The notes under the pieces were generated by a model. That model was not told the DNA's origin, searched no databases, and saw nothing but the letters and a program-made list of their open reading frames with translations. From Anaerolineae bacterium (GTDB lineage Bacteria > Chloroflexota > Anaerolineae > DRVO01), in NCBI GenBank assembly GCA_028275325.1, contig JAPWUW010000002.1:1-36651 (forward strand): a stretch of DNA of 36,651 nucleotides, written 5' to 3'. The translations under genes and the position numbers were made by a program. Position 1 is the first letter of the stretch. The number at the start of each line of letters is the position of its first letter. This document shows positions 14,914 to 35,882 of this stretch, one piece after another.

Positions 14914-16284
14914 ATGGCTGCCAGGAGGATCTCGCGCAGGCAGATGCTGAGGGCTGCATTGTTGGGGGCCGGGGCAGGAGTGCTGGCCTCCTGTGCCGCA
15001 GCGACACCGCAAGTGGTGAAGGAAACCGTGGTCGTGGAAAAGGAGGTCACCGTCGCCGCACCAGTAGCAGAAGAGATAACGCTCAAGCTCATGAGCTGGG
15101 ACAGCGGCATCGGTGACACGAAAAAGATCAACGAGGTCACTCTGCCCGCGTTCATGGCAAAGCACCCCAACATCAAGGTGGAATATGAGGCACCACCATG
15201 GAATGAGTACTGGACGAAGATTCAGACCATGGCTGCTTCCGGCCAGATGCCCGATGCCTACGGGCAAAGCGTCGCCTACGGCTGGGACCATGCCAACAAG
15301 AAGATCTCGCTCAACCTGCAGCCCTACATAGAGGTTGACCTCAACACCGACGACTACTTCATGGAGATGGAGCTCAGCTGCCACCGCTACCTCAGCATGC
15401 AGACTGGGGACCTTTACGCCTTCCCAGTGCGGTGGGTGGGCGAATGGCTCTTCTACAACGCGGACATATTCGATGCGGCCGGGATGAAATACCCCGATGA
15501 CACGTGGACCTACGACGACATGCTGGCAGCAGCCAAGGCGCTGCACAAGGTGAGCGGGGACAAAGTCGAGGTCTGGGGCATGCTTGCGCCGGCCGGCCAT
15601 ATTGGCCTTGATGCCATGATCAAGGCCAATGGCGGGGAGGTCTTGAGCAAAGACTACAGGAAGTGCAAGCTGACGGAGCCCGCCGCGCTTGAATCCGTGC
15701 GCTGGGCAGTCGAGACTGTGACGACGCACAAAGTCGCCCCCACACCGGAGGTTCAGGCAGGCTTCATTGGCGGCATGTTCGCCTCTGGTGTGCTTGCCAT
15801 GGCCCTTGATGGCAGCTACCAGGCGCACTTCTGGCGGGATGCCGAGTTCAACTGGGATGTTACGTACGTGCCCAAGGGCAAGGTGAGCCGCGTCATGTAT
15901 GGGGGGCCAGATAGCATCTCCATCGCCCGGCAGAGCAAACACAAAGAGGCAGCTTGGGAGCTCATCAAGTACTGGGTGAGCGAAGAAAACCAGATGCGCA
16001 TGGAGGACCTGATCATAGGTGGCGTTCCTTTCCTCAAGAAAGCCGCTTACTCGGATACGTTCCTCAACCGCGAGGGGAACCCGAAGGGGATCAAGACCAT
16101 ATTGGACATGGCTTCGGTCCTGCGAGGCGCTGACTTCGGCCCGCAGTGGATGGAGTGGCGCGTCACGATCATGAACCAGGAGCTCGACCAGGCCTACCTG
16201 GGGCTGCGCTCCGTGGAGGAATCGGTCCAGGCTGCGTGCGCCGCCATTGATGCCGTGCTGGCCACCATCGAGTGGCCCGTCTAG
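14914..16284 (+). CDS. ABC transporter extracellular solute-binding lipoprotein (carbohydrate-type, family 1), Tat signal
   Basis: GGAGGTG precedes the ATG. It has the Tat motif SRRQMLR and the lipobox LASC, then a V/E/K-rich linker, then the typical SBP body (MSWDSG.., PDAYGQS, FPVRW, YVPKG). Confidence 0.85.
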   Translation: MAARRISRRQMLRAALLGAGAGVLASCAAATPQVVKETVVVEKEVTVAAPVAEEITLKLMSWDSGIGDTKKINEVTLPAFMAKHPNIKVEYEAPPWNEYWTKIQTMAASGQMPDAYGQSVAYGWDHANKKISLNLQPYIEVDLNTDDYFMEMELSCHRYLSMQTGDLYAFPVRWVGEWLFYNADIFDAAGMKYPDDTWTYDDMLAAAKALHKVSGDKVEVWGMLAPAGHIGLDAMIKANGGEVLSKDYRKCKLTEPAALESVRWAVETVTTHKVAPTPEVQAGFIGGMFASGVLAMALDGSYQAHFWRDAEFNWDVTYVPKGKVSRVMYGGPDSISIARQSKHKEAAWELIKYWVSEENQMRMEDLIIGGVPFLKKAAYSDTFLNREGNPKGIKTILDMASVLRGADFGPQWMEWRVTIMNQELDQAYLGLRSVEESVQAACAAIDAVLATIEWPV

Positions 16285-16315
16285 GCCTGCCGGTAGGGCC
16301 TTGTATTCTGGCAAG

Positions 16316-16338
16316 AGAGGGTGGCTTTGCCACCCTCT
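16316..16338 (+). promoter_or_regulatory. intercistronic stem-loop after the SBP gene (AGAGGGTGG ctttg CCACCCTCT)
   Basis: Read directly: a 9-bp perfect stem and a 5-nt loop, with no U-tract. It lies between the SBP stop (16284) and the permease start (16390). Confidence 0.55.
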
Positions 16339-16389
16339 ACCCCCTCTTCGTCAGCACACAAGGCTTGACGCGCACCCAGGAGAGCGAGT

Positions 16390-17322: not shown

Positions 17323-17331
17323 GGGGTACAT

Positions 17332-18250: not shown

Positions 18251-19543
18251 ATGGCATTGCTGGCCGGTGCAGCCAAGGCGGACATCACCCCACAGCCGGG
18301 CGTCGACCTCACGGGCTACATTGCGCGCCTGAACCCCTCCATTGGGGTGCACGACAGGCTCTATTGCCGCGCGCTGGCCTTCTCAGACGGGCAAGCCACG
18401 CTCCTTCTGCTCAGCTGCGACCTTATCGGGTTCGGCATCGAGTATGCGCGGTGGGTCAAAGCTGAGCTGGAGCGCGCCACTGGGATCCCGCCTGCAAACA
18501 TAATGCTCTGTGCCACCCACACGCACTCCGGCCCCGCGACAATCTTTCTGGAGGGCTGCGGCCAACTGGCGCTGGACTACCTGGCCGGTTTGCCCTCTCA
18601 GATTGTTGCGGCCTCCCGGGGCGCCCTCGCCGCCCTGCAGCCGGTGGACCTTCGCGTGGCCAAGACAAAGGTTCCGGGAGTGGCCGTCAACCGGCGAGAG
18701 CCAGCACGTGGCCCTACCGACGACGAGCTGACAGTCGTCCTCCTGCAGGGCCCCGATGGCACGCCGCAAGCTGCTGCGTTGCACTATAGCTGCCACGCCG
18801 TCGTGCTTGGCCCGGATAACCGCCTCATCTCGGCGGATTTTCCGGGCGCTGCCTGTGCGCACTGGGAACGCAAGATGCGCTCACTCTGCTTTTACCTGCA
18901 GGGGCCTTGCGGAGATATCAACCCGCACAGTCACCCCGGCTCCTTTGCCGACGTGGAGGAAACCGGTGGGAGGCTGGCGGAGGCAGCTCTTGAATGCGCA
19001 AGCAGCCAGGCAGCAATGGGGACCATCGATGCGCACTTGCTGCGCGCCCGGTTGCAAGCCATTCGCCTGCCCCTTGCCGCACCGCCACAGTTGCCGGATC
19101 TATTCGCCTTTCGCTCTGAGCACCTGGCTGGCGCCGGCGAAGTTGAGGCGCAGTTCCAGGAGGCCAGGCAAAGGGTGAACCAGGCCATGGTCGGCTGGTC
19201 AGAGCGCGTCATTGCCGCCTGCTGCTCCGGCTTGCTCTTGCGAGATGTCGAGGTCGACCTGCAGTGCTTTGAAATTGGCGATCTTCTCATCCTGGCCGTG
19301 CCTGGCGAGCTGTTCGTGGAGTACAGCCTGGAGGCAAAACGCCTGGCAGCCCAGGCCGGCAAACACGCACTTGTAGTGGCTTATGCTAACGGCGATATCG
19401 GCTACATCCCGATGCCACATAGCTACGGCGAGGGTGGCTACGAGGTCGAGTGGGCTTACCGCTATTACGGCTACCCGGCGCCAGTTGCTCCGGAGGCGGG
19501 CTTGCGGCTGCGCGAATGGCTGGTTTCCAACATCACCGGCTGA
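18251..19543 (+). CDS. neutral/alkaline non-lysosomal ceramidase N-terminal-domain-like protein (putative amidase)
   Basis: AKADITPQPGVDLTGYIARLNPSIGVHDRLYCRALAF...LLLLSCDL...ATHTHSGP matches the characteristic N-terminal blocks of that family (diTP..g..l.GY, H-D-rL, THTHsgP). Confidence 0.6.
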   Translation: MALLAGAAKADITPQPGVDLTGYIARLNPSIGVHDRLYCRALAFSDGQATLLLLSCDLIGFGIEYARWVKAELERATGIPPANIMLCATHTHSGPATIFLEGCGQLALDYLAGLPSQIVAASRGALAALQPVDLRVAKTKVPGVAVNRREPARGPTDDELTVVLLQGPDGTPQAAALHYSCHAVVLGPDNRLISADFPGAACAHWERKMRSLCFYLQGPCGDINPHSHPGSFADVEETGGRLAEAALECASSQAAMGTIDAHLLRARLQAIRLPLAAPPQLPDLFAFRSEHLAGAGEVEAQFQEARQRVNQAMVGWSERVIAACCSGLLLRDVEVDLQCFEIGDLLILAVPGELFVEYSLEAKRLAAQAGKHALVVAYANGDIGYIPMPHSYGEGGYEVEWAYRYYGYPAPVAPEAGLRLREWLVSNITG

Positions 19544-19603: not shown

Positions 19604-20881
19604 ATGGGCAAGCTCGCTATGACAGGCGGAACACCTGTGCGCGCCAAGCCCTGGCCAGCCTGGCCAGAGGTGGACGAGCGCGACGTTGCGGCCGTGGCAG
19701 AGGTGGTTCGCAGCGGGAAGTGGAGCCGGCTCGGTGGCACAAAATGCCGGCAGTTCGAGCAGGCATTTGCAAAATACCAGGGCGCCAAGTACGGCCTGGG
19801 GGTCTCCTCAGGAACGGCTGCACTGGAGATCGCGCTGCGTGCCATGAAGGTCGGGCCGGGAGATGAGGTGATCGTGCCCCCTTACACGTTCATGGCCACC
19901 GCCACCGCTGTCCTCCAAGTGGGGGCCCTGCCCATTTTTGTCGACATCGACCCCGAGACTTACAACATCAATCCGGACCTGATCGAGGGTTCAATCACAG
20001 AGCGGACAAGGGCGATCATCCCGGTGCACTTTGGAGGCCTTGCTTGCGACATGGATCGCATACTGGCCATAGCGCGCAAGCACGACCTGCTCGTGTTGGA
20101 AGATGCCGCTCATGCCCACGGCGCCAGGTGGAAGGACAAGGGGCTGGGCACTATTGGCGATGCTGGCGCTTTCAGCCTGATGACTGGCAAGAACCTGGCG
20201 GCTGGCGAAGCCGGCATCATCCTCACCGACAGCGCTGAGCTCATGGGCTGGTGTGTGCTCTACCATGATTTCTGGCGGGGCGCTGTGCGCGCCGATGCAG
20301 TTGAATCCGAGCTGCCAGAAGGATGGTCGGTTCGCTTCCCGGTTCTGGCAGGAAACGACCGCATGAATGAGATAGAGGCCGCGCTTCTTCTCTCGCAGCT
20401 GGAGAAGCTGGAGGAGCAGACGCAGCGGCGTGCGGCAAACGGGGACTACCTGAACGGCCTCCTTGCGCAGATCGAAGGCGTGCGGCCCCTCAGGCGCGAC
20501 AGTTACGTCACGCGCAATTCCTATCACCTGCTCGTTTTCCAGTACACGGGCGAGGGCTTCAAGGGGCTCCCGCGAGAGAAGTTCGCGGCGGCCCTGCAGG
20601 CAGAAGGAATTCCCGTGAGCACTGGTTACCAGCGGCCGGTATACCAGCACCCCGTGTTCCTGGAAGCGCAGACTGCGCTGCCTAAAGGCTTCCCGGTGAA
20701 GGGCGGCTACTACGGCCGGGAAATCGACTACAAAGAGGTGCACTGCCCACAGGCGGAGCGGCTCTGCCAGCAGGAGACTCTGTGGTTGGGGCAGAACCTG
20801 TTTCTCGGCACCAGAGCCGACATGGACGACATCGCCGAGGCCATTGCCAAGGTCAAAAGACACGTCGATGAGCTCCTCTAG
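19604..20881 (+). CDS. DegT/DnrJ/EryC1/StrS-family aminotransferase (copy 2, PWPAWP subtype)
   Basis: ATG at 19604 follows AAGGAGG. Motifs are GGTPVRAKPWPAWPEVDERDV, GVSSGTAALEIALRA, GDEVIVPPYTFMATA, DAAHAHGA and the PLP-lysine block FSLMTGKNLAAGEAGIILT. Confidence 0.85.
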   Translation: MGKLAMTGGTPVRAKPWPAWPEVDERDVAAVAEVVRSGKWSRLGGTKCRQFEQAFAKYQGAKYGLGVSSGTAALEIALRAMKVGPGDEVIVPPYTFMATATAVLQVGALPIFVDIDPETYNINPDLIEGSITERTRAIIPVHFGGLACDMDRILAIARKHDLLVLEDAAHAHGARWKDKGLGTIGDAGAFSLMTGKNLAAGEAGIILTDSAELMGWCVLYHDFWRGAVRADAVESELPEGWSVRFPVLAGNDRMNEIEAALLLSQLEKLEEQTQRRAANGDYLNGLLAQIEGVRPLRRDSYVTRNSYHLLVFQYTGEGFKGLPREKFAAALQAEGIPVSTGYQRPVYQHPVFLEAQTALPKGFPVKGGYYGREIDYKEVHCPQAERLCQQETLWLGQNLFLGTRADMDDIAEAIAKVKRHVDELL

Positions 20882-20911: not shown

Positions 20912-22696
20912 ATGAACATTTACCTTCTGGCCGGGGAAGATCCTTCCAAGGGGCTGTGGCCATACGTTCTTGAGATCATGGCCACCGAGGGCTTGCCGAG
21001 GCCTGTCCTCATGAAGCCAGAGGGGCTTTCCCGTCTGTTACCTGTCGGCCGGGCTGTCGTCATTGTCCCTAGCATGGAGCTCTCAGCGAGCACAGCCGAG
21101 CTCCTCGGGCGGCATCTGCGCGGCGGAGGAGGGCTCCTCGCACTCAAGCCCTGCTCGGCTTTGGCCACCGAGCTCGGGCTGCGCAAGCTGCACGGAATCC
21201 CGGACTTTCTGCTTTGCGATGGCTACCTCGAGTTCAACAGGAGCCATCCCCTCTGCGTGGTCCTGCCGCCTCAAATCGATTACCTCCAGTACCATGGCCA
21301 GGCCGAGCCCTACGAGCTGCCGGCAGGCCTCTGTGCAGCCGCCACCCTTTACTGGGGCGGGACGTCCACGACCTGTGGCGCTATAGCCACGGGCCACCTG
21401 CATAAGGGGAAAGCGGCTATCTTCGCGTACGACCTGGCTGCTTCCACGATGCTCTTCCGCCAGGGCTTGCGCCGCCAGAGCAGCCTGGGGGAGCTGCCAG
21501 ACCGCAGTGGCGATAGCATGTTTACCCCTAATGACCTTTTCGTCGGCTTCCTGGATGCAGGGCTGCGGCTGGTGCCGCAGGCTGACCTGCACGCGCGGCT
21601 GTTTGCAAAGGCGCTGGCCTGGCTTTGCGAGGACTGGGCTCCACTGCCGAGGCTCTGGTACTTCCCCGGAGGGAAGCCAGCGGTGGCCCTCATCAATGGC
21701 GATAGCGACGCCATGAGCCGCGAGGAGATGGAGCTATATATCCAGCTGGTTGCCAGGGCGGGTGGGCACTATACCCTGTACCTCATGCGCGAGCACTATG
21801 ACTTGGTTCCGCCCGAGCTAGTCGCCCATTACCTCTCCCTTGGGCACGGTTTTGGCCCGCACATCTGGGCGGGGCCGCGGCCAACGCCGGAAGAGTTCGC
21901 CGCCTGTGCGCAGGAGGAGGTCGCGGCATTTGTGGGCAGGTACGGATTCAGGCCAACTACCACGCGCCACCACTGCGTCATCTGGCCGGGATGGGTTGAA
22001 CCGGCACGTGCGCTCGAGAAGGTAGGGATCCGCATGGAGGTCAACTTCCGTGCGGCGCATTTCTTCCGCGAGGGCTATTTGAGCGGGAGCGGCCTGCCCA
22101 TGCCATACATGGACGAGACGGGAAAGGCCATTGAGGTCCTGCAGCAGCCGACGCTTCTGTGCGACGACTTCCTGTTCCAGAACAAGAGTTACCTGCGGCC
22201 TCTCAAGATGCAGGAAGTGATTGCCCTCACGGATGCCATGCTCGAGGGTTGCGTGCGGGATTACAACACCGTCTTCCAGGCCTACTTTCACCCTGTGTAC
22301 GCCCGCAAAGAGAACCCTCTTGTTCCTGGGACGTACACCGTGCCCTGGCTTGAGCACACTGTGGGCAGGTGTCAGGAGCTGGGCGTGCCAATGCTATCGG
22401 TCCAGGAGTGGTGCGGCTTCGCCTGGGCACGCCGCCGCGTATGGCTGGATAACCTTTCCTTCGAGCCCGGCAGCCGCCTGCTGACGGCCGCGCTTCGCAC
22501 AGAGCTCGGTGCTATTCCCGGGGGCCTTACCATCATGGCGCCTTTGCGCTGGCAGGGGCTGGAGGCCAAGTCGGTGCGCGTTGGCGGGGAGCTCGCCTCG
22601 ACGTGGAGGCGCAGATGGCTCGGCGAGGAGTGGCTCTTTTGCGAATTGCCTGCCCTCGCGGCGAGCCAGCAGCTAAAGATCCTGTACGGGAACTAG
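20912..22696 (+). CDS. conserved hypothetical ~590-aa protein (paralog A); central part deacetylase/hydrolase-barrel-like
   Basis: 594 aa with clear paralogy to 34143..35882: shared blocks PNDLFxGxLDA, PQADxH, PLPRLWY, HCVxWxGxVExARAL, GSGxPM and LGVPxL. I recognise no diagnostic family signature. Confidence 0.6.
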   Translation: MNIYLLAGEDPSKGLWPYVLEIMATEGLPRPVLMKPEGLSRLLPVGRAVVIVPSMELSASTAELLGRHLRGGGGLLALKPCSALATELGLRKLHGIPDFLLCDGYLEFNRSHPLCVVLPPQIDYLQYHGQAEPYELPAGLCAAATLYWGGTSTTCGAIATGHLHKGKAAIFAYDLAASTMLFRQGLRRQSSLGELPDRSGDSMFTPNDLFVGFLDAGLRLVPQADLHARLFAKALAWLCEDWAPLPRLWYFPGGKPAVALINGDSDAMSREEMELYIQLVARAGGHYTLYLMREHYDLVPPELVAHYLSLGHGFGPHIWAGPRPTPEEFAACAQEEVAAFVGRYGFRPTTTRHHCVIWPGWVEPARALEKVGIRMEVNFRAAHFFREGYLSGSGLPMPYMDETGKAIEVLQQPTLLCDDFLFQNKSYLRPLKMQEVIALTDAMLEGCVRDYNTVFQAYFHPVYARKENPLVPGTYTVPWLEHTVGRCQELGVPMLSVQEWCGFAWARRRVWLDNLSFEPGSRLLTAALRTELGAIPGGLTIMAPLRWQGLEAKSVRVGGELASTWRRRWLGEEWLFCELPALAASQQLKILYGN

Positions 22697-26805: not shown

Positions 26806-28098
26806 ATGAGCGAGCTGGCAATAAACGGCGGGAGCCCGGTGCGCACGAAGCCATGGCCAGCCTGGCCAGTGCACGATGAGCGCGAGGTGCAGGCCGTCAC
26901 GGAGGTGGTGCGCAGCGGCAAGTGGTGGCGCTTCGCCTATGCCACCGGGGTGGAGCTGAACGAGGACCTGCAGGCGCAGGAGCTTTCCAAGGTGGTCGAG
27001 TTCAGCCTGAAGTTCGCCAGGCACCACCAGGCGCGCTTCGGCATCGCCATGGCCAACGGCACTGGGACGCTTGAGGTGGCCCTGCGGGCCCTGGGGATTG
27101 GCCCTGGGGACGAGGTGATAGTGCCCGCCTACACGTACGTGGCCAGCGCCACCTCCGTGCTGCAGGTGAATGCCATCCCCATCTTTGTGGACGTGCAGGC
27201 GGACACTTACAACCTGGATCCGGCCCGCATCGAGGAGGCCATCACCGAGCGGACGCGGGCCATCATGCCCGTGCACTTTGGCGGCCAGCCGGCAGACATG
27301 GATGGCATCCTTGCCATAGCCAAGAAGCATGGGCTCGCCGTGGTGGAAGATGCAGCGCACGCCCATGGCTCGGAGTGGCGCGGTTGCAAGGTGGGTGCGC
27401 TCGGCGATGTCGGCTCCTTCAGCTTCCAGGCTTCCAAGAACATGACGGCGGGCGAGGGCGGCATTGTCCTCACCAACGACCAGGATCTGGCCGAGAAGTG
27501 CGATTCGCTCCTGTGGGCGGGGCGCAAGAAGGGCAGGCCCTGGTACGAGTTCCACCAGCTGGGGTGGAACTACCGGATGACGGAGTTTCAGGCGGCGATA
27601 CTGCTCGTACAGCTGGAAAGGCTTGAGGAGCAGAACGACAGGCGCATGGCCAATGCCCGCTACTTGAGCGCGCGCCTGGCCGAGGTGGAGGGCCTGGAGC
27701 CGCTGCGCTGGGATGAGCGCGCGACCAAGCACAGCTTTCACATCTACATAATGCGCTACCAGCCCGAGGCTTTTGGCGGCCTGCCGCGCAGTCGCTTCGT
27801 GGAGGCGCTTGTGGCCGAAGGGATCCCGGCGTTCACAGGCTACACTTTTCCGGTTTACGCCAACCCGATGTTCGTCAACAAGAACTTCCATGGCAAGGGC
27901 TGCCCGCTCGCCTGCGGGCATTACGGCCGCGATGTCGACTATGCGGCTTTTGCCCGGAGCTGCCCGGTGGCGGAACGGGCCTGCTATCAGGAAGCGATCT
28001 GGCTGGAACAGCGGCTCTTTCTGGCTGAGCGGGAAGACATGGACGACATTGTCGAAGCCATCCTGAAGGTGAAGGCGGGGGTGAAGGAGCTGGCCTAG
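26806..28098 (+). CDS. DegT/DnrJ/EryC1/StrS-family aminotransferase (copy 4, PWPAWP subtype)
   Basis: GGSPVRTKPWPAWPVHDEREV closely parallels copy 2. Other motifs are GDEVIVPAYTYVASA, DAAHAHGS and FSFQASKNMTAGEGGIVLT. It carries an extra ~35-aa insert after the N-terminal block relative to copy 2. Confidence 0.85.
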   Translation: MSELAINGGSPVRTKPWPAWPVHDEREVQAVTEVVRSGKWWRFAYATGVELNEDLQAQELSKVVEFSLKFARHHQARFGIAMANGTGTLEVALRALGIGPGDEVIVPAYTYVASATSVLQVNAIPIFVDVQADTYNLDPARIEEAITERTRAIMPVHFGGQPADMDGILAIAKKHGLAVVEDAAHAHGSEWRGCKVGALGDVGSFSFQASKNMTAGEGGIVLTNDQDLAEKCDSLLWAGRKKGRPWYEFHQLGWNYRMTEFQAAILLVQLERLEEQNDRRMANARYLSARLAEVEGLEPLRWDERATKHSFHIYIMRYQPEAFGGLPRSRFVEALVAEGIPAFTGYTFPVYANPMFVNKNFHGKGCPLACGHYGRDVDYAAFARSCPVAERACYQEAIWLEQRLFLAEREDMDDIVEAILKVKAGVKELA

Positions 28099-28255: not shown

Positions 28256-29671
28256 ATGAGCTGCAGGAGAGGGTATCTTTCGCGACGCGGCCTGCTCAAG
28301 GCAGGCGTTGGGCTTTTGGCTTCGGCCGCCGTGGGGGCGTGTGCGGCAACGCCCACGCCGCAGGTGATCGAGAAAGAGGTCACTGTGGTGGTCGCTGGCA
28401 CGCCGCAGGTGGTCGAGAAAACGGTCGTCGTGGAGGTGGAGAAGCCCGCAGGCCCGGTGGAGATCCGCATTGCCTGCTACACCATGGGCGAATCCTGGAT
28501 GAAGAATGCGGAGGAGTGCTTCGCCGACTTCATGTCCAAGAACCCCAACATCAAGGTGAAGGCGGAGTGGCGCCCCGGCGCCGAGTACTGGACGAAGCTG
28601 CAGACGGAGTTTGCTGCCGGCGTGGCTCCGGACATCACCGTGAACCAGATGGACTGGGTCATCCCGGGTGCCGCGCGTGGCATGTTCCTGGACCTCAAGC
28701 CCTACATCGAGCGCGACGGCTTCGACATGAGCCAGTACTTCTACAACATGAGCCTGGAGTGGGAGTGGCAGGGAGGGCTTTACGGCGGCTTGCTCTACGC
28801 GGGCGGGCAGACGCTCATGATCAACAAGGACCTCCTGGCGAAAGCGGGGCTTGAGTTCCCCACTGAGGACTGGACGTGGGACGACCTGCTGGCCTACGCC
28901 AAGGCGATGACCAACCCCGATGAGAACCAGTGGGGCCTGATGGGCGCAAACTCCAACCCACCTTACTGGCTGTGTTCCTTCATCCACGGCGCGGGCGGCA
29001 GTGTTCTCAACGACGCGTACAACAAGTGCACGCTCACAGAGCCGGCGGCGGTGGAGGCTGTGCAGTGGGTTGCTGACCTCATGTTCAAGCATAAGGTGCA
29101 CCCTTCGGCGGTGACGGAGTTCGGCGGGGAGGACCCGTTCCTCACCGGCAAGGTGGGCATGGCCTTTCGGGGTACCTGGTACGAGAGCCAGGTGCGCGAT
29201 GCCGGGCTCTTCGACTGGGATTTCGCCCCAATGCCGAAGCACCCAGTGACGGGCAAGAAGAGCGTGCAGATGGGGTCGAACACCTGGTCCATCATCAGCA
29301 ACACCCAGCACCGGGAAGAGGCCTGGCAGCTTGTGAAGTTCCTCATGGGGCCGGAGGGGCAGACCTGGTTCATGAAGTACGGCATCCCCGGCATCAGGAG
29401 CGTGGTCGAGAGCGAGGCGTTCAAGAAGCTGCATGAGCCGCAGAACATCCTCGTCGTGGTGAACGACTTCGCCTGCTGCGGCCACGACTACTACCCCACC
29501 GCCGATTGCGGCGAGTGGTGGAACGTCTGCAACCAGGAGATGTCGCCAATCTGGTCCGGGGAGCTCAGCGTGCCAGAGGCTCTGGCCAACGCCTGCGCCG
29601 CCATGGACGAGGTATTCTCCCGTCGTCCTCCGTACTACGAGAAGGTGCGCCAGCCACTTACTACAGGCTGA
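28256..29671 (+). CDS. ABC transporter extracellular solute-binding lipoprotein (second system), Tat signal
   Basis: ATG at 28256 follows GGGGGAGG. It has the Tat motif SRRGLLK and the lipobox VGAC, then a duplicated V/E/K linker, then the SBP body (PDITVNQMDW, GGQTLMINKDLL, PMPKHP). Confidence 0.85.
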   Translation: MSCRRGYLSRRGLLKAGVGLLASAAVGACAATPTPQVIEKEVTVVVAGTPQVVEKTVVVEVEKPAGPVEIRIACYTMGESWMKNAEECFADFMSKNPNIKVKAEWRPGAEYWTKLQTEFAAGVAPDITVNQMDWVIPGAARGMFLDLKPYIERDGFDMSQYFYNMSLEWEWQGGLYGGLLYAGGQTLMINKDLLAKAGLEFPTEDWTWDDLLAYAKAMTNPDENQWGLMGANSNPPYWLCSFIHGAGGSVLNDAYNKCTLTEPAAVEAVQWVADLMFKHKVHPSAVTEFGGEDPFLTGKVGMAFRGTWYESQVRDAGLFDWDFAPMPKHPVTGKKSVQMGSNTWSIISNTQHREEAWQLVKFLMGPEGQTWFMKYGIPGIRSVVESEAFKKLHEPQNILVVVNDFACCGHDYYPTADCGEWWNVCNQEMSPIWSGELSVPEALANACAAMDEVFSRRPPYYEKVRQPLTTG

Positions 29672-31580: not shown

Positions 31581-31704
31581 GCTAGCCCGGCATCCCTTTC
31601 TCACCTAACCTCCCGTCCCTAGGGAGGGAAGGCAGAGAAGCAGCCGGGGAGGGGTTGGCAGGGGAGGGCCGGGACATTATATGTTGGCGGGAGGAGCGGG
31701 GGAT

Positions 31705-32889
31705 ATGAAAGAGATCCGAGTTGCGTTGGTTGGCCTGGGGGGCCGCGGCGTCTACGGCTGGCTGCCGATCCTGCAATCCCTGCGCGGCTACCGCGTGGTG
31801 GCAATATGCGACCGCATCGAGGCTCTGCACGAGCGGGCGCTCTTGCGCCTGCGCGACCCTAGGGAAGTGCGTGCCTACGTGCGCTATGAGGATGTCCTGG
31901 CCGACCCCGACGTGGATGCGGTGGCCCTCACGGTGCGCTGCCGCGAGCAGGGGGCGATGGCGGCCCAGGCGCTGGAGGCAGGCAAGCACGTGCACTGTGA
32001 GGTCCCAGCGGCGCACAGCATCGAGGATTGCTGGCGGATAGTGCTGGCGCAGGAGCGCAGCGGCAAGGTCTATCAGCTTGCGGAGCAGACGCGCTACTGG
32101 GGGTTTGTGGAGGCCTGGCGCAAGCTCGTGGCCGAGGGGAGGCTCGGGCACATAACTTTCTGCGAGGGGCAGTACTTCCACTATTACGTCGGCCAGAACT
32201 TCCAGGATCCGCGGACAGGGCGCTTCTTTCATCCCGGGGAGCTGGCAGCGCACCCCGAGGCGCAGCCAACCTGGCTGAACGAGATGCCCCCAATCCACTA
32301 CCTCCCGCATGAGCTCAGCCCTCTTCTCAAGATCCTGGATGACCGCGTGGTGCAGGTGGTGGCCATGAGCACTCGTGCTCCAAGCTATGCCCATCCTGAG
32401 CTCAATGTCCCGGATATGCAGGTCGCGCTGATGAAGACGGAAAAGGACGCTATCTTGCGCCTGGCTGTCTCCTTCGCGCAGCCGCATCCGGAGGCCAACT
32501 ACCACTGGTACCACGTCATGGGCACCAAAGGTGCCCTGGAGTGGAAGCGCGCCGAGCGGGATCTGCCGCGCATGTGGCTTGCAGACCACGAGATGCACGA
32601 CATGGCTGAGGTGGATTGGCGCTACGAGCGCGCCGACGCGCCTGCCGAAGCGCGCGGCACAGGCCATGGGGATGCCGACTACTACGTACACGCAGCATTC
32701 CGGGATGCGGTGCTGTACGGCAAGCCACTGGAGTTCGATGTCTACCGGGCGATGGACACGGCCGCGCCAGCGATCCTGGCTGCCGAGTCGATCGCCAGGG
32801 GGTCTGCCCCACTTGCCGTCCCGGATTTTCGCCCGAGCGCGGCGCGGCCCAAGGGGCAGGCGCCAGCACCCGCAGGCAGGGGAGAGTAG
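31705..32889 (+). CDS. Gfo/Idh/MocA-family oxidoreductase (divergent, CEVP variant of the EKP motif)
   Basis: ATG at 31705 follows GGAGGAG. The Rossmann start is IRVALVGLGGRG, the motif is KHVHCEVPAA, the C-terminal domain is long, and the tail is Pro/Ala-rich. Confidence 0.75.
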   Translation: MKEIRVALVGLGGRGVYGWLPILQSLRGYRVVAICDRIEALHERALLRLRDPREVRAYVRYEDVLADPDVDAVALTVRCREQGAMAAQALEAGKHVHCEVPAAHSIEDCWRIVLAQERSGKVYQLAEQTRYWGFVEAWRKLVAEGRLGHITFCEGQYFHYYVGQNFQDPRTGRFFHPGELAAHPEAQPTWLNEMPPIHYLPHELSPLLKILDDRVVQVVAMSTRAPSYAHPELNVPDMQVALMKTEKDAILRLAVSFAQPHPEANYHWYHVMGTKGALEWKRAERDLPRMWLADHEMHDMAEVDWRYERADAPAEARGTGHGDADYYVHAAFRDAVLYGKPLEFDVYRAMDTAAPAILAAESIARGSAPLAVPDFRPSAARPKGQAPAPAGRGE

Positions 32890-32894
32890 TGAGA

Positions 32895-34064
32895 ATGTCC
32901 ACGCGCATTTACAACGAGCTCGACCTGGCTTACGTCAAGCGCGTGCTGGATGCTGGCCAGGATGGCCGCGGAGAGGCAATCGTCGAAGAGCTGGAAGAGA
33001 GGTTTGCCGCAAAGGTTGGCGCCCGCTACGCCATTGCCGTAAACGCCGGCATGAGCGGGCTGCACATCGCCCTTGCCGCTGCTGGGGTCGGGCCGGGCGT
33101 GGAGGCAGTGGTCGACCCGATAGTGCAATTTGGCGGCCTTGCCGTGATGTACAACAACGGTGTCCCGATCTTTGCTGATGTCGACCCTGCGACCCACAAC
33201 ATGAGCCCGGCCTCCCTGGAGGAGCGCATATGCGAGCGGACCAAGGCAGTCGTCGTCACCCACCTGTGGGGGCTGCCGGCCGAGATGCAGGATATCCGCG
33301 CCATTGCCGATCGCCACGGGCTTGTGGTGGTGGAGGATTGTGCTCACGCGCTCTTTGCCGAGCACCGCGGACGGAAGGTGGGCACGTGGGGGCATATCGG
33401 CATGTTCAGCTTTCAGGCGGCAAAGCACCTCAGCACCGGGCAGGGCGGTATCGTCGTCACGGACGATGAGGCCCTGGCGAAAGAGATGCGCGCCGTGGCG
33501 GCCTTTGGTGCCGCTCCGGATCGGCTGGCGTGGGTTTTCCGCATGGCGGGGGTGGTGGCCGCCGTGGCGCTGGCCCAGCTTGAACGGGCCGAGGGCTACG
33601 TCGCCGAGGATCGGGAGAATGCCAAGCTCTACCAGGAAGCGGTGGCGGGCTGTCCCTGGCTTGTGCCGCAGGCAGAGCCGCCGTACAGCACCCACTCACA
33701 CCACTGCTGGGCTGCCGCCTTCTATGGCGAGAGCTATGGCGTCGACTACGAGGCCTTCAAGCGTGCCTGCCGGGAGGAAGGGGCGCAGGTATCGTTTGGC
33801 TACACACAGCGCAGCTGGAAGGAGGCACAGATTGTGGCGGCCTACGAGTTCCCCGTGTTTGCCGAACCAGTGGCCTATGGGAAGGGCTGCCCAACGCGTT
33901 GCCCTCTTTACGGCAGGGAGCTCCCCTACCGCAAGGGCTACTGCCCCAATGCCGAAGCGCTCATACCACGCCTGTGCGTGACGGCCCTAAGCACGCGCCG
34001 GCGCGATGAGGTTGCTTCTGGTGCTCTGGGGCTGTTGCGCGCCATCAAGAGGATGGGCTGGTGA
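32895..34064 (+). CDS. DegT/DnrJ/EryC1/StrS-family aminotransferase (copy 5)
   Basis: I trimmed the ORF to the ATG at 32895. Motifs are AVNAGMSGLHIALAAAG, DCAHALFA and the PLP-lysine block FSFQAAKHLSTGQGGIVVT. Confidence 0.8.
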   Translation: MSTRIYNELDLAYVKRVLDAGQDGRGEAIVEELEERFAAKVGARYAIAVNAGMSGLHIALAAAGVGPGVEAVVDPIVQFGGLAVMYNNGVPIFADVDPATHNMSPASLEERICERTKAVVVTHLWGLPAEMQDIRAIADRHGLVVVEDCAHALFAEHRGRKVGTWGHIGMFSFQAAKHLSTGQGGIVVTDDEALAKEMRAVAAFGAAPDRLAWVFRMAGVVAAVALAQLERAEGYVAEDRENAKLYQEAVAGCPWLVPQAEPPYSTHSHHCWAAAFYGESYGVDYEAFKRACREEGAQVSFGYTQRSWKEAQIVAAYEFPVFAEPVAYGKGCPTRCPLYGRELPYRKGYCPNAEALIPRLCVTALSTRRRDEVASGALGLLRAIKRMGW

Positions 34065-34080
34065 GGAGAGCGCTTGCGGG

Positions 34081-34110
34081 GTGCCATGGCCCGATGGCAA
34101 GGGCTTTTAT
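34081..34110 (+). terminator. weak terminator/attenuator-like hairpin (TGCCAT ggcccg ATGGCA) followed by TTTTATT
   Basis: Read directly. The stem is short (6 bp) and 5 nt separate it from the T-run. It lies between DegT copy 5 and the 579-aa gene. Confidence 0.3.
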
Positions 34111-34142
34111 TGTGCGCCCCGTTAGCAAGGAGGCTGTGAGTC

Positions 34143-35882
34143 ATGGAGATAGTGGTGCTCGTTCGCCCGCAGCAGCAGCTCAACCGTTACGGCCGCTACA
34201 CGGCGGAGATCCTGAAGGCGGAGGGGCTCAACTGCTTCAGCGTGCAGCCGTGGTTTCCCGGGCAAATGCCGGCCCTGTCGGGTGCGGCTGTGACTGTGCT
34301 CACGCGTTGCCGGCTGCAGCCAGAGGAGGTGGGCTTCCTGCGCGATTACGTGCAGAGCGGCGGCCGGCTGGTGGCATTTGCCCCGCCTGCTTACCTGTAC
34401 CAGGCCTTTGGGGCGCGCCCGCTGAACCGGGTTGCCATTGACGGCTACATCAAGCCGCTCCTGCGCTACCGTGTGGGGCGGGCCATTGGTGGCGAGAGCA
34501 TCCAGTTCCATGGGCCGGCGGCCAAGGTGGCGTTCCCACCTGAGTTTGCAGCTAAGGCGTGGCTATGCTCGCCGGCTGGCGAGCTGACGGACCACCCTGC
34601 GGTGGCCATCGGCCGCATCGGGAAGGGTGCTGTGTGTCTTTTCACCTACGACCTGCCTGCTACCGTCGTCGCCATCCGCCAGGGGGATCCGCGCCTTGCG
34701 TACGAGGCCACGGCCGGGTTTGCGGCCGACAACCAGTGTCGGCCAAACGACCTTTTCACGGGCCATCTGGACGCAAGCCGCGGCCACATTCCGCAAGCTG
34801 ACGTGCACCTGAACCTCTTGACGGAAGTTATTGAGGAGCTTGCGCCCATGCCGCTCCCGCGCCTGTGGTACTACTACCGGCCGGAGGTGAAAAGCGTTCT
34901 CGTCATGACGAGCGACGACGATTGGTCGACGGTCGAGCAGTTTGAGGCGCTCATCGGCGCTGTAGAGGAGAATGGGGGGCATTGCCTGTTTTTCATGGTC
35001 GAGGGCACGCGCATTCCGGCAGCGAAGGTGCGGGAGTGGATGTCAAGGGGCCATGCCTTCTCGGTGCATACGAACCCGCGCAGCCACGAGATCGACCCCT
35101 ACTGGCACATGGACGAGAGCGTGAGGAGGCACAAGCGCCAGCTTGAGGCGGAGTATGGCCGGCCGGCCCGGGTCTATCGCTCCCACTGCGTTTACTGGCA
35201 GGGCTACGTGGAATCAGCCCGTGCCCTTGCCGAGATGGGCTTCCGGATGGACACGAGCCTCATCAGCCTGCTTGACCACTGGGGCCTGTACGTGAACGGC
35301 TCGGGCCGGCCCATGCGCTTTGCTGACGAGAGCGGCGAGATAATCGACCTTTTCGAGCAGCCTGTGGCCTTTTACGATGACGCCTCGGTGCAGAAGGTGC
35401 TCACGGAAGAGCCAGAGCTCGAGGTGGCACGCGCGAGCTTCGTGCTGCAGGAGGCGGCCGAGAAGTACCACACCCCCTTCGGCTTCCTCTCGCACCCTGT
35501 GAGCTTTGCCACTTACAGCAGCCGCTTTGTGCGGGGAGTGCTCTCATCTGCGCGGCGGCTTGGCGTGCCGATCCTCAATGCAGACGAGTGGCTGGAGTTC
35601 ACGCTGCAGCGGGATGCTGCCCGGCTCCAGGAGATCTGCTGGCGAGGTGATGAGCTTTCATTTACGCTGGAGAGAGGTATTCCGGCGCCGGCCCTGACAG
35701 TCTCGGTGCCGGTGCCCCAGGGGATGCGCGTTGCGGGCGTGCAGATTGCCGGGCAGCCGTGGGCGCACGCGGTAACGACAGTGCATGGCGAAACCTGCGC
35801 CATGATACCCCTGGAGTTGCCGGCAGGTGCCGCTTTGCAGACGCCCGTAGCGGTGCAGTTTGCGCCTGGGGCGCAGGGGTGA
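34143..35882 (+). CDS. conserved hypothetical ~590-aa protein (paralog B of 20912..22696)
   Basis: AAGGAGG lies upstream. 579 aa with the same conserved blocks as paralog A: KGAVCLFTYDL, PNDLFTGHLDA, PQADVH, PLPRLWYYY, TSDDDW, GHAFSVHTNP, SHCVYWQGYVESARALAEMGFRMD, GSGRPM and LGVPILNADEW. Confidence 0.6.
   Translation: MEIVVLVRPQQQLNRYGRYTAEILKAEGLNCFSVQPWFPGQMPALSGAAVTVLTRCRLQPEEVGFLRDYVQSGGRLVAFAPPAYLYQAFGARPLNRVAIDGYIKPLLRYRVGRAIGGESIQFHGPAAKVAFPPEFAAKAWLCSPAGELTDHPAVAIGRIGKGAVCLFTYDLPATVVAIRQGDPRLAYEATAGFAADNQCRPNDLFTGHLDASRGHIPQADVHLNLLTEVIEELAPMPLPRLWYYYRPEVKSVLVMTSDDDWSTVEQFEALIGAVEENGGHCLFFMVEGTRIPAAKVREWMSRGHAFSVHTNPRSHEIDPYWHMDESVRRHKRQLEAEYGRPARVYRSHCVYWQGYVESARALAEMGFRMDTSLISLLDHWGLYVNGSGRPMRFADESGEIIDLFEQPVAFYDDASVQKVLTEEPELEVARASFVLQEAAEKYHTPFGFLSHPVSFATYSSRFVRGVLSSARRLGVPILNADEWLEFTLQRDAARLQEICWRGDELSFTLERGIPAPALTVSVPVPQGMRVAGVQIAGQPWAHAVTTVHGETCAMIPLELPAGAALQTPVAVQFAPGAQG

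Follow-up and report, generated by a model that had tools for sequence, protein, structure and literature searches.

A Chloroflexota gene island of DegT aminotransferases, importers and predicted amide hydrolases, possibly for the use of N-acylated amino sugars

What might be the role of a locus in which five DegT-family aminotransferase genes lie among ABC importer genes and a ROK regulator? The question is raised by a 36,651 nt stretch of DNA (the window) from an uncultured Anaerolineae-like Chloroflexota, for which the first-pass annotation had suggested an import-and-process system for an aminated, probably N-acylated, sugar or glycoside. Pfam and NCBIfam searches found five DegT, two Gfo/Idh/MocA (Gfo) and one Fe-ADH gene, two solute-binding proteins (SBPs) with four permeases, a ROK regulator and a two-component system. 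No ORF of the window matched NTP_transferase, 4,6-dehydratase/epimerase, glycosyltransferase, Wzx/Wzy, sugar kinase or a classical GH family in Pfam, which bears out the earlier claim that NDP-sugar, glycosyltransferase, flippase/polymerase and sugar-kinase genes are absent; no export genes were found in the window either.

Aminotransferases and dehydrogenases

The five aminotransferases, all DegT_DnrJ_EryC1 proteins (Pfam E 1e-73 to 1e-116), and the three dehydrogenases were found as claimed:

840..2054, + strand: DegT-1 aminotransferase (PF01041 E 1e-99; PLP lysine; longest ORF from 771)
2066..3166, + strand: Fe-ADH/GldA-like (glycerol-dehydrogenase-like) oxidoreductase adjoining DegT-1 (Pfam Fe-ADH, Fe-ADH_2)
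19604..20881, + strand: DegT-2 aminotransferase, BtrR/RbmB-like (top PDB matches 2-deoxy-scyllo-inosose aminotransferases, E 8e-72)
24345..25604, + strand: DegT-3 aminotransferase (Pfam E 1e-115; top PDB matches 7b0d and perosamine synthetase)
25720..26778, + strand: Gfo-1 oxidoreductase (Pfam; canonical EKP motif)
26806..28098, + strand: DegT-4 aminotransferase, BtrR/RbmB-like (PDB 5w71, 2c7t and 5w70, E about 1e-76)
31681..32889, + strand: Gfo-2 oxidoreductase, GH109-like (Pfam; EVP replaces EKP)
32895..34064, + strand: DegT-5 aminotransferase (Pfam E 4e-73; top PDB match 8gyh)

The Schiff-base lysine column is invariant in all five DegT proteins (K211 in DegT-1 numbering), and the paralogues are old and divergent, with 31-39% identity to DegT-1. 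DegT-2 and DegT-4 match BtrR/RbmB with E values of 1e-72 to 1e-76, in contrast to 1e-48 to 1e-56 for ArnB. DegT-4, which carries PWPAWP at its N-terminus and whose C-terminal segment is long, aligns end to end with 5w71, 2c7t and 5w70 and has the WPxWP N-terminus in common with them. Judged by sequence, these two proteins appear closest to aminotransferases for free, non-nucleotide substrates and not to NDP-sugar enzymes; non-nucleotide members of the family are documented (NtdA, KdnA and RbmB; bioRxiv 10.1101/2021.09.04.459008). DegT-4 has 6938 homologues at E<=1e-60, with 60-66% identity across phyla, and in about 20 species of Chloroflexota an orthologue of DegT-2 (53-58% identity) stands directly upstream of the gene for the CE4-like protein.

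The Fe-ADH gene scores 213 bits with the NCBIfam glycerol dehydrogenase subfamily, under the cutoff of 336, and the top PDB match of Gfo-1 is 1,5-anhydro-D-fructose reductase (E 1e-44). A decayed fourth dehydrogenase had been proposed at 10365-10562, which our searches do not support. Neither Gfo-1, Gfo-2 nor Fe-ADH gave a tblastn match there, the overlapping ORFs are without Pfam match at E<=1, and immediately upstream lies a PIN/Phd-YefM toxin-antitoxin pair (9582-10291, minus strand). The absence of any recognisable glycoside hydrolase had also been claimed. This holds for the classical GH families but is too strong, as among solved structures Gfo-2 is matched best, and over its full length, by the GH109 protein 6t2b (E 4.6e-19). 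Relatives of Gfo-2 carry PF21252 GH109_C, and EVP is kept in 25 of 25 aligned Gfo-2-type sequences, the window's own included. Gfo-2 is thus a candidate glycosidase within the window.

Predicted amide-cleaving enzymes

Several genes had been overlooked in the first-pass annotation, namely a histidine kinase with its response regulator, three CE4-like deacetylases, two Amidohydro_2 genes and one each of the ceramidase-like, transglutaminase-like and creatininase-family genes. The hydrolase-type genes are:

3157..4260, + strand: transglutaminase-like protein (Transglut_core E 1.5e-10)
4265..5197, + strand: small CE4-like polysaccharide deacetylase (Polysacc_deac_1, 23.7 bits, cutoff 23.1)
6343..7185, + strand: Amidohydro_2 protein a (PF04909; start uncertain, longest ORF from 5962)
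7182..7964, + strand: Amidohydro_2 protein b (PF04909 E 7.5e-31)
18251..19543, + strand: neutral-ceramidase-like amidase, N-terminal catalytic domain only (Ceramidase_alk E 9e-21; PDB 2zws E 1.5e-11)
20912..22696, + strand: U594, cytoplasmic three-domain protein (AF2 model with CE4/NodB deacetylase-fold core)
34143..35882, + strand: U579, paralogue of U594 in the CE4-like deacetylase family (Polysacc_deac_1, 22.7 bits)
35933..36651, + strand: creatininase-family amidohydrolase (PF02633 E 8e-49; truncated by the window end)

The U594 sequence matched nothing in Pfam, NCBIfam or PDB. Its AF2 model (pLDDT 95.6) consists of a GATase1/GH42-trimerisation-like N-domain, the CE4/NodB core and a beta-sandwich C-domain, and Foldseek matched it to ArnD, 3rxz and chitin and peptidoglycan deacetylases. 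ArnD (8t0j, E 6e-7) tops the list but is no better than the generic CE4 matches. The family keeps an invariant Asp/His/Arg set (D264, D266, H317, R352 and H460). U579 is 29% identical to U594 (BLASTP E 7e-53), and neither has the N-terminal hydrophobic or lipobox-type signal of the lipoprotein SBPs; in U594 no long hydrophobic stretch is visible by eye. We suggest that the two represent an unannotated family of predicted deacetylases, with the CE4/NodB fold modelled for U594.

The transglutaminase-like protein has candidate Cys, His and Asp positions; in Dehalococcoidia its relatives neighbour genes of the CE4-like family, and they also lie within module B (described below) of L044, one of the related loci (prefixed L). 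Such an amide-hydrolase-rich locus agrees with the N-acylated substrate guessed earlier. The Amidohydro_2 pair is also found beside the CE4-like family and DegT-4-type genes. Protein b (AF2 pLDDT 94) comes closest in fold to ACMSD-type decarboxylases and hydratases, a resemblance we counted against a catabolic N-deacylation reading.

Transport, regulation and related loci

The two importer sets and their candidate regulators are as follows:

10857..13616, + strand: hybrid histidine kinase, HisKA-HATPase-receiver (Pfam; true start probably further downstream)
13573..14793, - strand: response regulator with N-terminal HTH (gene call in L001/L002; Response_reg E 2.6e-15)
14914..16284, + strand: SBP-A, CUT1-type lipoprotein solute-binding protein (SBP_bac_1/8; lipobox LASC)
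16390-17322 and 17332-18222, + strand: two module A ABC permeases (BPD_transp_1)
23030..23058, + strand: sigma-70-like promoter match in an AT-rich palindromic element preceding the ROK gene, the sole such match within 14-34 kb
23098..24306, + strand: ROK-family transcription regulator (ROK E 4e-39 and MarR HTH)
28256..29671, + strand: SBP-B, lipoprotein solute-binding protein (SBP_bac_1/8; gene call; lipobox VGAC)
29776-30675 and 30678-31580, + strand: two module B ABC permeases (BPD_transp_1; gene calls in L001)

The two importer sets had been described as complete; each SBP gene is indeed followed by two permease genes, but an ABC ATPase gene is absent from the window. As the ROK protein carries an N-terminal MarR-type wHTH, its sequence marks it as a regulator, as claimed, and not a kinase. 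The histidine kinase and response regulator genes lie just upstream of SBP-A, the latter divergent from it, and this kinase-regulator-SBP order is repeated in L007. The window is probably divided into three modules under separate regulation rather than being the one wired unit proposed earlier.

Relatives at 79-90% identity preserve the layout of the window (L044, L048-L058; module B synteny in L044, L049, L053 and L058), so it is no chance pile-up. U594-anchored loci were found in 35 GTDB species, with DegT in 26 (in 22 of these no more than 3.5 kb away and on the same strand) and Gfo in 22. Their several unrelated architectures with importers include SBP-perm-perm-U594 (L003, L009), SBP-perm-U594-perm-DegT (L007) and an Opp-type ABC with three transglutaminase-like, three U594 and two GH109-like genes (L030-L036). 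Among 45 DegT-4-anchored metagenome loci at least 8 kb long, Gfo occurs in 35, ceramidase-like genes adjoining DegT-4-type genes in 12 (also in L045 and L127), flanking ROK genes in 12, a TonB receptor in 11 and an SBP in 7. Since related MAGs contribute many of the loci, the counts do not represent independent events.

In Anaerolineae, Terriglobales and Planctomycetota the DegT-4 relatives adjoin Gfo, ceramidase-like, PIG-L, creatininase and Amidohydro_2 genes, together with ABC, SSF or TonB transporters, ROK or LacI regulators and GH94, GH2 or GH20 (weak). Individual DegT-4-type loci include the tightly packed LacI-FGGY-SSF-DegT-Gfo-PIG-L-ceramidase-like-TonB x2 of L045 (Terriglobales), Gfo-DegT-DegT-creatininase-Amidohydro_2 x2 of L046 (Planctomycetota), GH94-CBM9-DegT-ceramidase-like-GH2 (L070), SSF-GHL10-ceramidase-like-DegT-Gfo (L066) and GH20 (weak)-LacI-DegT-Gfo-SSF-PIG-L-ceramidase-like (L127); a creatininase gene lies 3' of DegT-4-type genes in L046, L059, L110 and L128. 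The first-pass annotation had named consistent embedding of homologous loci in O-antigen, S-layer-glycan or antibiotic clusters as a ground for refuting its idea; in the loci examined, the usual partners are transporters, regulators and glycoside hydrolases instead of O-antigen or antibiotic clusters. The DegT/Gfo/amidase core is constant across the DegT-4 loci while transporter, regulator and deacetylase families are exchanged for non-homologous ones, a pattern typical of a catabolic pathway. Some related loci hold acetyltransferases (an Eis-like GNAT in L044; two AAC(3)-family and a PglD-like in L128), which fit biosynthesis or modification better than catabolism.

Possible pathway and competing explanations

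On balance, we favour the island as a carbohydrate utilisation system for N-acylated amino sugars or amino-glycosides, apparently built from three modules of the same logic. Gene content, folds, family relationships and conserved neighbourhoods are direct observations, and from SBP dependence we infer the direction of import; N-deacylation, amine-removing transamination and the order of steps are interpretation as well. Small substrates would enter through the two SBP-dependent ABC systems, powered by an ATPase encoded elsewhere, with module A under the two-component system and module B under the ROK repressor. In the cytoplasm U594/U579 and the small CE4-like, ceramidase-like, creatininase-family and transglutaminase-like enzymes would cleave amides and free amino groups, and Gfo-2 may break a glycosidic bond by an NAD-dependent mechanism. 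The DegT enzymes would transfer these amino groups to a 2-oxo acid acceptor, leaving keto sugars that the adjacent Gfo or Fe-ADH dehydrogenases could interconvert with ordinary hydroxyl sugars, and the products would feed central pathways encoded elsewhere. Genes for downstream catabolism, such as a kinase, aldolase or isomerase, are absent from the window, an observation we set against a catabolic reading. The recurrence of the core beside nutrient-uptake genes in at least three phyla points to an undescribed breakdown route for N-acylated amino sugars.

The earlier interpretation is therefore partly supported. Its core, import and processing instead of NDP-sugar biosynthesis, has gained real support from the amide hydrolases, the non-nucleotide-type DegT-2 and DegT-4 and the context of related loci; the GT2/PMT_2 clade discussed below, the acetyltransferases, the missing relic dehydrogenase, the overlooked GH109-like candidate and the three modules detract from it, and the deaminating direction and the substrate are purely conjectural.

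As transamination is reversible, its direction is not readable from sequence, and the Gfo/DegT couples might instead work towards amination. A sugar or cyclitol, whether imported or internal, would be oxidised and then given an amino group, in the manner of kanosamine or scyllo-inosamine synthesis, yielding for example a compatible solute, envelope sugar or aminocyclitol-type metabolite with deacetylases and acetyltransferases as tailoring enzymes. To our knowledge all biochemically characterised Gfo and DegT couples are biosynthetic (NtdC/NtdA, GnnA/GnnB, WbpB/WbpE, RifL/RifK), DegT-2 and DegT-4 resemble aminoglycoside-pathway aminotransferases, and related loci hold PIG-L deacetylases and acetyltransferases. 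We nevertheless consider biosynthetic or salvage amination unlikely: a sugar-phosphate cyclase, glycosyltransferase, nucleotidyltransferase and exporter are absent from the window and most related loci, SBP importers, TonB receptors, SSF symporters, GH94/GH2/GH20 and sugar-responsive regulators are typical catabolic company, and the window has deacylases yet no N-acetyltransferase recognisable by Pfam. Nor do we give much weight to three unrelated utilisation modules merely juxtaposed, with heterogeneous DegT/Gfo functions and no single pathway or shared substrate class. The 402-nt gap before the ROK gene with its own promoter-like site, the differing regulators of modules A and B, the toxin-antitoxin region (8.7-10.3 kb) setting module 1 apart and the divergence of the DegT paralogues would suit such a mosaic, but DegT with a CE4-like or other amidase recurs in all three modules (an adjacent dehydrogenase in two), the paralogues U594 and U579 lie one per module, and in other phyla these families lie together in one compact operon (L045, L046, L128).

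An Arn-like envelope modification, in which DegT-2 and U594 as ArnB and ArnD analogues attach an amino sugar to a lipid or glycan together with GT2 (ArnC-like) and PMT_2/ArnT-like proteins, seems very improbable to us. ArnD does top the Foldseek list, and GT2, sulfatase and PMT_2 genes follow U594 in one syntenic Chloroflexota clade, GT2 and PMT_2 within 6 kb in 14 related loci. All three however run antiparallel to U594, neither the window nor the other architectures contain the glycosyltransferases, an ArnA-like formyltransferase/decarboxylase is absent, the ArnD match at best equals the generic CE4 ones, the lack of a visible hydrophobic stretch in U594 also speaks against it, and DegT-2 scores far higher with BtrR than with ArnB.

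Gene content of the window

The gene map is based on an ORF listing, on Pfam and NCBIfam scans and on genes as called on two metagenome contigs of near-identical sequence. The G+C content is about 64%, nearly all genes lie on the + strand, and they fall into three modules, with a toxin-antitoxin stretch between module 1 and the two-component system of module A and a 402-nt gap preceding module B.

Genes of the window (coordinates in nt, strand, gene)
Module 1
840-2054, +, DegT-1, a DegT aminotransferase
2066-3166, +, Fe-ADH, a GldA-like dehydrogenase
3157-4260, +, transglutaminase-like protein
4265-5197, +, small CE4-like deacetylase
5106-6386, +, ORF without family
6343-7964, +, Amidohydro_2 pair
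Spacer, toxin-antitoxin stretch, 8.7-10.3 kb
8766-9254, -, HicB-like antitoxin ORF
9582-9992, -, PIN (VapC-like) gene
9989-10291, -, Phd/YefM antitoxin
Module A
10857-13616, +, hybrid histidine kinase
13573-14793, -, divergent response regulator
+, solute-binding protein SBP-A, then two permeases
18251-19543, +, ceramidase-like amidase
from 19604, +, DegT-2
20912-22696, +, U594 (594 aa), 3' end of the module
Module B, in this order
ROK regulator
from 24345, DegT-3
25720-26778, Gfo-1, a Gfo/Idh/MocA oxidoreductase
from 26806, DegT-4
solute-binding protein SBP-B
two permeases
31681-32889, Gfo-2, a Gfo/Idh/MocA oxidoreductase
from 32895, DegT-5
34143-35882, U579 (579 aa)
35933->36651, +, creatininase-family gene, cut by the window end

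The ORF at 5106-6386 (+) has good codon usage and a 'GTSDIDMRL' stretch resembling a nucleotidyltransferase-fold motif; it had no Pfam match even at E<=10 and no relatives among the related loci. Rfam and tRNA scans of the window returned no RNA family and no tRNA, hence no riboswitch that might hint at the ligand.

The first-pass annotation had remarked that genes for NDP-sugars, glycosyl transfer and export are missing, and the Pfam and NCBIfam scans agree: no nucleotidyltransferase, 4,6-dehydratase, glycosyltransferase or flippase/polymerase was found in the window. It had also counted two complete sets of an SBP plus two permeases. Two CUT1-type sets are indeed present, each an extracytoplasmic solute-binding protein with two membrane permeases, but as transporters they are not complete, because the Pfam scan of the window detected no cognate ATPase (ABC_tran). 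Shared MsiK-type ATPases encoded elsewhere are common.

Aminotransferases, dehydrogenases and candidate amide hydrolases

All five DegT proteins match the DegT/DnrJ/EryC1/StrS profile PF01041 (247-387 bits, cutoff 19.8), and the PLP lysine reported for them at first reading is an invariant column in a five-way alignment. They are therefore of the aminotransferase type; ColD/E1 dehydratases have His in place of this Schiff-base lysine. The paralogues are old, with 31-39% identity to DegT-1. None of the five reaches the NCBIfam equivalog cutoff of an NDP-sugar aminotransferase (ArnB, PseC, WecE, DesI etc.), the best match being PseC with 308.6 bits against a cutoff of 423.5 and all others lower; nor does any other window protein reach an equivalog cutoff.

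The closest solved relatives of DegT-2 and DegT-4 are the L-glutamine:2-deoxy-scyllo-inosose aminotransferases BtrR and RbmB (E 1e-72 to 1e-76; best PDB E-values to this type 8e-72 for DegT-2 and 3e-76 for DegT-4, both end to end), followed by AHBA synthase. Both are clearly nearer to BtrR/RbmB than to ArnB, WbpE or QdtB, and share with them an N-terminal WPxWP and an extended C-terminal segment. NtdA, KdnA and RbmB have been described as non-nucleotide members of the family in which the nucleotide pocket is blocked (bioRxiv preprint 10.1101/2021.09.04.459008). BtrR/BtrS, RbmB and StsC act on free cyclitols, not NDP-sugars, within aminoglycoside pathways; the window, by contrast, lacks a 2-deoxy-scyllo-inosose synthase, a glycosyltransferase and any other gene of an aminoglycoside cluster, and no aminocyclitol-pathway context (cyclase, glycosyltransferase) was found in the related loci examined either. 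For DegT-3 and DegT-5 the nearest solved relatives are 7b0d, perosamine synthetase and 8gyh, not the scyllo-inosose aminotransferases.

The three dehydrogenases previously recognised (Gfo-1, Gfo-2 and Fe-ADH) were recovered by the Pfam and NCBIfam scans. A decayed fourth had been proposed at 10365-10562; tblastn gave no match there and the overlapping ORFs have no Pfam match, and this relic has no support. Both Gfo proteins have an N-terminal Rossmann domain (PF01408), with GxGxxG visible in the sequence, together with a C-terminal alpha/beta domain (PF02894/PF22725). Gfo-1 carries the canonical EKP motif; its best solved relative is 1,5-anhydro-D-fructose reductase and its best NCBIfam model is IolG, at a score below the cutoff.

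Gfo-2 has no signal peptide and belongs to a subtype with EVP (Glu-Val-Pro) for the usual EKP (Glu-Lys-Pro) in all 25 aligned sequences, i.e. the window protein and 24 relatives from other genomes or metagenomes (loci L006, L030-L037 and L040). It is about 60% identical to its counterparts in Dehalococcoidia-type loci, where these stand as tandem pairs. The best PDB match is the GH109 protein 6t2b (full length, E 4.6e-19), GH109 being the family of NAD-dependent alpha-N-acetylgalactosaminidases; against Pfam GH109_C it scores 19 bits with a cutoff of 27, which its relatives pass. Best structure, the GH109_C of the relatives and the EVP subtype together mark Gfo-2 as GH109-like, hence a candidate glycosidase exists in the window and the earlier statement that it holds no recognisable glycoside hydrolase was too strong.

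Overlooked at first reading were at least seven window proteins that are candidate hydrolases of the amide-bond or a related kind: U594, U579, the 4265-5197 protein, the ceramidase-like, creatininase-family and transglutaminase-like proteins and the Amidohydro_2 pair. U594 and U579 are related as paralogues, with 29% identity (E 7e-53), and behind U579 module B has just the creatininase-family gene. Their family is small, with 59 database matches, every one annotated 'hypothetical' and nearly every one from a Chloroflexota MAG, and an exact-sequence database look-up of U579 gave no record. Sequence searches of Pfam, NCBIfam and the PDB gave nothing for the family save a sub-threshold Polysacc_deac_1 in U579 (22.7 bits, cutoff 23.1; the 4265-5197 protein scores 23.7 bits and U594 has no match).

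In an AlphaFold model built on 39 homologues (pLDDT 95.6), the core domain of U594 is predicted to have a NodB-homology fold (Foldseek probability 1.0, E 6e-7 to 1e-4), with ArnD, M. smegmatis 3rxz and chitin and peptidoglycan deacetylases as structural neighbours, while the N-terminal domain matches GH42-trimerisation/GATase1-like domains. D264, D266, H317, R352 and H460 are invariant in the family and seem to echo, at altered spacing, the metal and acid-base motifs of CE4. The likeness to CE4/NodB deacetylases lies in the core fold and in Asp-x-Asp / His...His / Arg / His, reminiscent of motifs 1, 2, 3 and 5; the differences are a sequence similarity at or below the Pfam threshold, a presumably cytoplasmic location, a family restricted to MAGs of Chloroflexota and Latescibacterota, the additional GATase1-like and beta-sandwich domains, and D-x-D, H-x4-H, R and H in non-canonical spacing compared with TFDD, HSxxH, RxPY and LxH. 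By eye neither U594 nor U579 has an N-terminal signal sequence; both SBPs are lipoproteins.

An aldonate route (C1 oxidation by Gfo, lactonase action of Amidohydro_2, and alpha-transamination of a 2-amino-aldonate by DegT) would have accounted for the Amidohydro_2 pair as lactonases. The fold gives it no support: the nearest PDB folds to the model of Amidohydro_2 b (pLDDT 94) are ACMSD/LigW-type decarboxylases and hydratases, with no sugar lactonase among the top 50 PDB structure matches, and the variant stays speculative.

Related loci and the proposed pathway

As the full 39-sequence alignment was too divergent, a 12-sequence subset served as query in the U594 genome scan. It found 35 species-level loci, all in MAGs of Chloroflexota (including Dehalococcoidia) or Latescibacterota, which were annotated by tblastn of the window proteins and clustering of home-made ORF calls. 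A DegT gene is present in 26 of the 35, in 22 of them on the same strand and <=3.5 kb from U594; usually it is the DegT-2 orthologue (53-58% identity) immediately upstream. Gfo occurs in 22/35. Several unrelated architectures recur, as listed.

Gene order at loci anchored on U594
L003, L009: SBP-permease-permease-U594-PhyH-Amidohydro_2 x2, DegT nearby
L007: Amidohydro_2 x2-HK-RR-SBP-permease-U594-permease-DegT, U594 lying between the two permease genes
Dehalococcoidia loci: Opp-type ABC-transglutaminase-like x3-U594 x3-GH109-like Gfo x2
Latescibacterota loci: DUF6785 membrane protein-Amidohydro_2-DegT-U594

One syntenic Chloroflexota clade (14 loci) has GT2, sulfatase and PMT_2 genes after U594 on the opposite strand. 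This GT2/PMT_2 content is the sole trace of the O-antigen, S-layer or antibiotic cluster setting which the first-pass annotation had named as contrary to its reading. In many Chloroflexota loci a sulfatase with an N-sulphoglucosamine sulphohydrolase-type C-terminal domain (L015, 13027-14556, -; equivalents in 19 loci) is the first or second gene downstream of U594, and an N-sulfatase there would also unmask a sugar amine. In L003, L004 and L009 a PhyH-family dioxygenase directly follows U594 (about 11800-12700), and upstream of the SBP (about 1000-6100, -) lies a tandem array of some eight paralogous genes of 170-220 aa, adjoining the SBP-permease-permease-U594 operon. The array genes have no Pfam match and form a cluster of 40 members in 5 loci.

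The DegT-4 group is very large (6938 homologues at E<=1e-60) and well conserved, with 60-66% identity in Terriglobales and Planctomycetota MAGs.

Gene order at loci anchored on DegT-4
L044 (Anaerolineae, 83% identical, syntenic with module B): ROK-DegT-Gfo-Gfo-DegT4-SBP-permease-permease-Gfo(GH109_C)-transglutaminase-like-Gfo-DegT-GNAT
L045 (Terriglobales): LacI-FGGY kinase-?-SSF-DegT4-Gfo-PIG-L-ceramidase-like-TonB x2
L046 (Planctomycetota): Gfo-DegT4-DegT-creatininase-Amidohydro_2 x2
L066 (metagenome): SSF-GHL6/10-ceramidase-like-DegT4-Gfo
L070 (metagenome): GH94-CBM9-DegT4-ceramidase-like-GH2
L090 (metagenome): TonB receptor-TPR-beta-lactamase-family hydrolase-DegT4-Gfo
L127 (metagenome): GH20 (weak)-LacI-DegT4-Gfo-SSF-PIG-L-ceramidase-like
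L128 (metagenome): ROK / Gfo-Gfo-DegT4-DegT-creatininase-PIG-L-M24-creatininase-CitMHS-AAC(3)-family-Amidohydro_2 x2-PglD-like

Of 45 metagenome DegT-4 loci of 8 kb or more, 35 have Gfo, 12 a ceramidase-like gene, 12 ROK, 11 a TonB receptor and 7 an SBP; it should be noted that many of the loci compared are from MAGs related to one another. In the L045 stretch between SSF and the ceramidase-like gene, the spacing ranges from a 4-nt overlap to 17-nt gaps. Families of aminoglycoside-modifying enzymes were also seen at DegT-4-type loci: two Antibiotic_NAT (AAC(3)) genes in L128 (4759-5631 and 17895-18725), an Acetyltransf_9 (Eis-like) GNAT in L044 (15379-16645) and an NTP_transf_2 gene in L127 (17464-17826).

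From the observed gene content, folds and neighbourhoods we infer every catalytic step, direction and substrate, and with moderate confidence we suggest import, N-deacylation, amine removal by DegT and a dehydrogenase couple as the most likely mechanism. Small N-acylated amino sugars or amino-glycosides would be imported and their N-acyl groups removed in the cytoplasm by the CE4-like, ceramidase-like and creatininase-type enzymes, with a glycosidic bond possibly cleaved by the GH109-like enzyme. The DegT enzymes would pass the amino groups to 2-oxo acids, and neighbouring Gfo or Fe-ADH enzymes would interconvert keto and hydroxyl sugars.

Adjacent Gfo/Idh/MocA dehydrogenase and DegT genes are likewise found in NtdC/NtdA (kanosamine), GnnA/GnnB, WbpB/WbpE and RifL/RifK, where the chemistry, common ground with the window couples, runs from hydroxyl to keto to amine on the sugar ring, and NtdA exemplifies a DegT enzyme that accepts non-nucleotide sugars. 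These systems are biosynthetic, as are all characterised Gfo + DegT couples known to us, and come with phosphatases, glycosyltransferases or NDP-sugar genes, whereas the company of those in the window, namely importers, sugar regulators and deacylases, points to the reverse direction. The biosynthetic precedent and the acetyltransferases in some related loci would favour a biosynthetic or salvage amination. On the other hand, transporter, regulator and even deacetylase family are swapped for non-homologous equivalents from phylum to phylum around DegT-4, as one would expect if a catabolic pathway is conserved, and difficult to square with surface-glycan or antibiotic biosynthesis, and we regard amination as unlikely. 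That the window is a mosaic of independent operons seems improbable to a similar degree; the families scattered over it form tight operons in DegT-4 loci elsewhere. An Arn-like envelope modification is to us very improbable indeed; ArnD is a fold relative of the U594 core, but DegT-2 lies much nearer to BtrR than to ArnB. What probability remains goes to chemistry beyond these readings.

The catabolic mechanism that we favour has partial parallels. The CsnR chitosan-oligosaccharide operon of Streptomyces and the NagC/Mlc regulons also set a ROK repressor beside a CUT1-type importer of amino-sugar oligomers, with the ATPase elsewhere, but feed the GlcN-6-P deaminase (NagB) route and are not known to have a DegT, Gfo or CE4-like set. 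The thuEFGK-thuAB trehalose utilisation genes and the rhizopine moc locus wire an SBP importer to a free-sugar or cyclitol Gfo/Idh/MocA oxidoreductase; neither is known to include a DegT aminotransferase or deacylases. KanJ/KanK (kanamycin B to A) achieve the net amine to keto to hydroxyl conversion via a reductase, as proposed for the window, but KanJ, a member of the PhyH superfamily, removes the sugar amino group oxidatively as a 2-oxoglutarate dioxygenase, is not a transaminase and belongs to a biosynthetic cluster. No described catabolic DegT/Gfo system was found in the full-text literature searched, a non-exhaustive search and thus absence of evidence only. The enzyme superfamilies are all known and a locus with SBP importer and ROK regulator is of an ordinary type; what is new lies in the composition, in DegT/Gfo couples apparently put to catabolic use, in the U594 family and in the conservation across phyla.

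More tentatively, we speculate that the window exemplifies, in elaborate form, a so far undescribed pathway that is widespread across phyla, with a DegT-4-type transaminase, a Gfo/Idh/MocA enzyme and one or more amidases (ceramidase-like, PIG-L, CE4-like, creatininase) as its core. N-acylated amino sugars, amino-glycosides or aminocyclitol glycosides, from necromass or glycans, would be deacylated and transaminated instead of entering by NagB. The AAC(3)-family, Eis-like and nucleotidyltransferase genes in related loci suggest that it may also handle aminoglycoside-like compounds, and could then be where families of aminoglycoside-modifying enzymes have their home in the environment. The substrate might be aminoglycoside- or aminocyclitol-like, as hinted at by the BtrR-like DegTs, PIG-L (the BtrD/NeoL family), the AAC(3)-family and Eis-like acetyltransferases, NTP_transf_2 and the KanJ-recalling PhyH; the breadth of the DegT-4 type, far more widespread (Acidobacteria, Planctomycetes, Chloroflexota) than aminoglycoside producers, argues for a commoner one.

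A large pool of the organic nitrogen and carbon of soils, sediments and sludge consists of amino sugars. To our knowledge, their known catabolism is nearly confined to 2-amino sugars, by phosphorylated GlcN/GalN deaminases or glucosaminate lyases. If the proposal holds, a transaminase/dehydrogenase route would explain the use of rarer or differently linked amino sugars in abundant but poorly cultured phyla (Chloroflexota, Acidobacteriota, Planctomycetota, Latescibacterota), and thousands of genes now called 'dTDP-4-amino-4,6-dideoxygalactose transaminase' would acquire a physiological role. U594 would then represent a new CE4-like deacetylase family, and the route could be a source of biocatalysts that remove amines from free sugars or install them. 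The two SBPs, five transaminases and three deacylase types of the window are clonable targets.

Regulator and intergenic elements

The ROK regulator was rightly recognised at first reading, having both a wHTH and a ROK domain. The only sigma-70-like match in 14-34 kb (23030-23058) lies in the gap before its gene, overlapped by an AT-rich element with palindromic halves (TGATATGTTAACAGTAATGTTACTAA, 23040-23075), a candidate ROK operator. A short ACAT-TAT-ATGT palindrome stands upstream of Gfo-2, at about 31675.

A search for a shared operator across the intergenic regions of the window gave no convincing common motif, only a local repeat, GATGCAAGG-N(9-13)-CAGGGGAGC, shortly behind the stop codon of DegT-3 and again behind that of DegT-4 (25612-25642 and 28117-28143). 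Its two occurrences compare with 0 expected from 100 shuffles, and it could be an RNA or regulatory element. Upstream of DegT-1 (576-750) there are two strong inverted repeats, AATACGTGGTGTATAACG / CGTTATACCCCACGTATT at 603-642, flanked by the direct repeat GTATT(G/A)CATGGC, and GGAAATGGCCCCAGC / GCTGGGGCCATTTC at 714-749, which may be an operator and a stem-loop.
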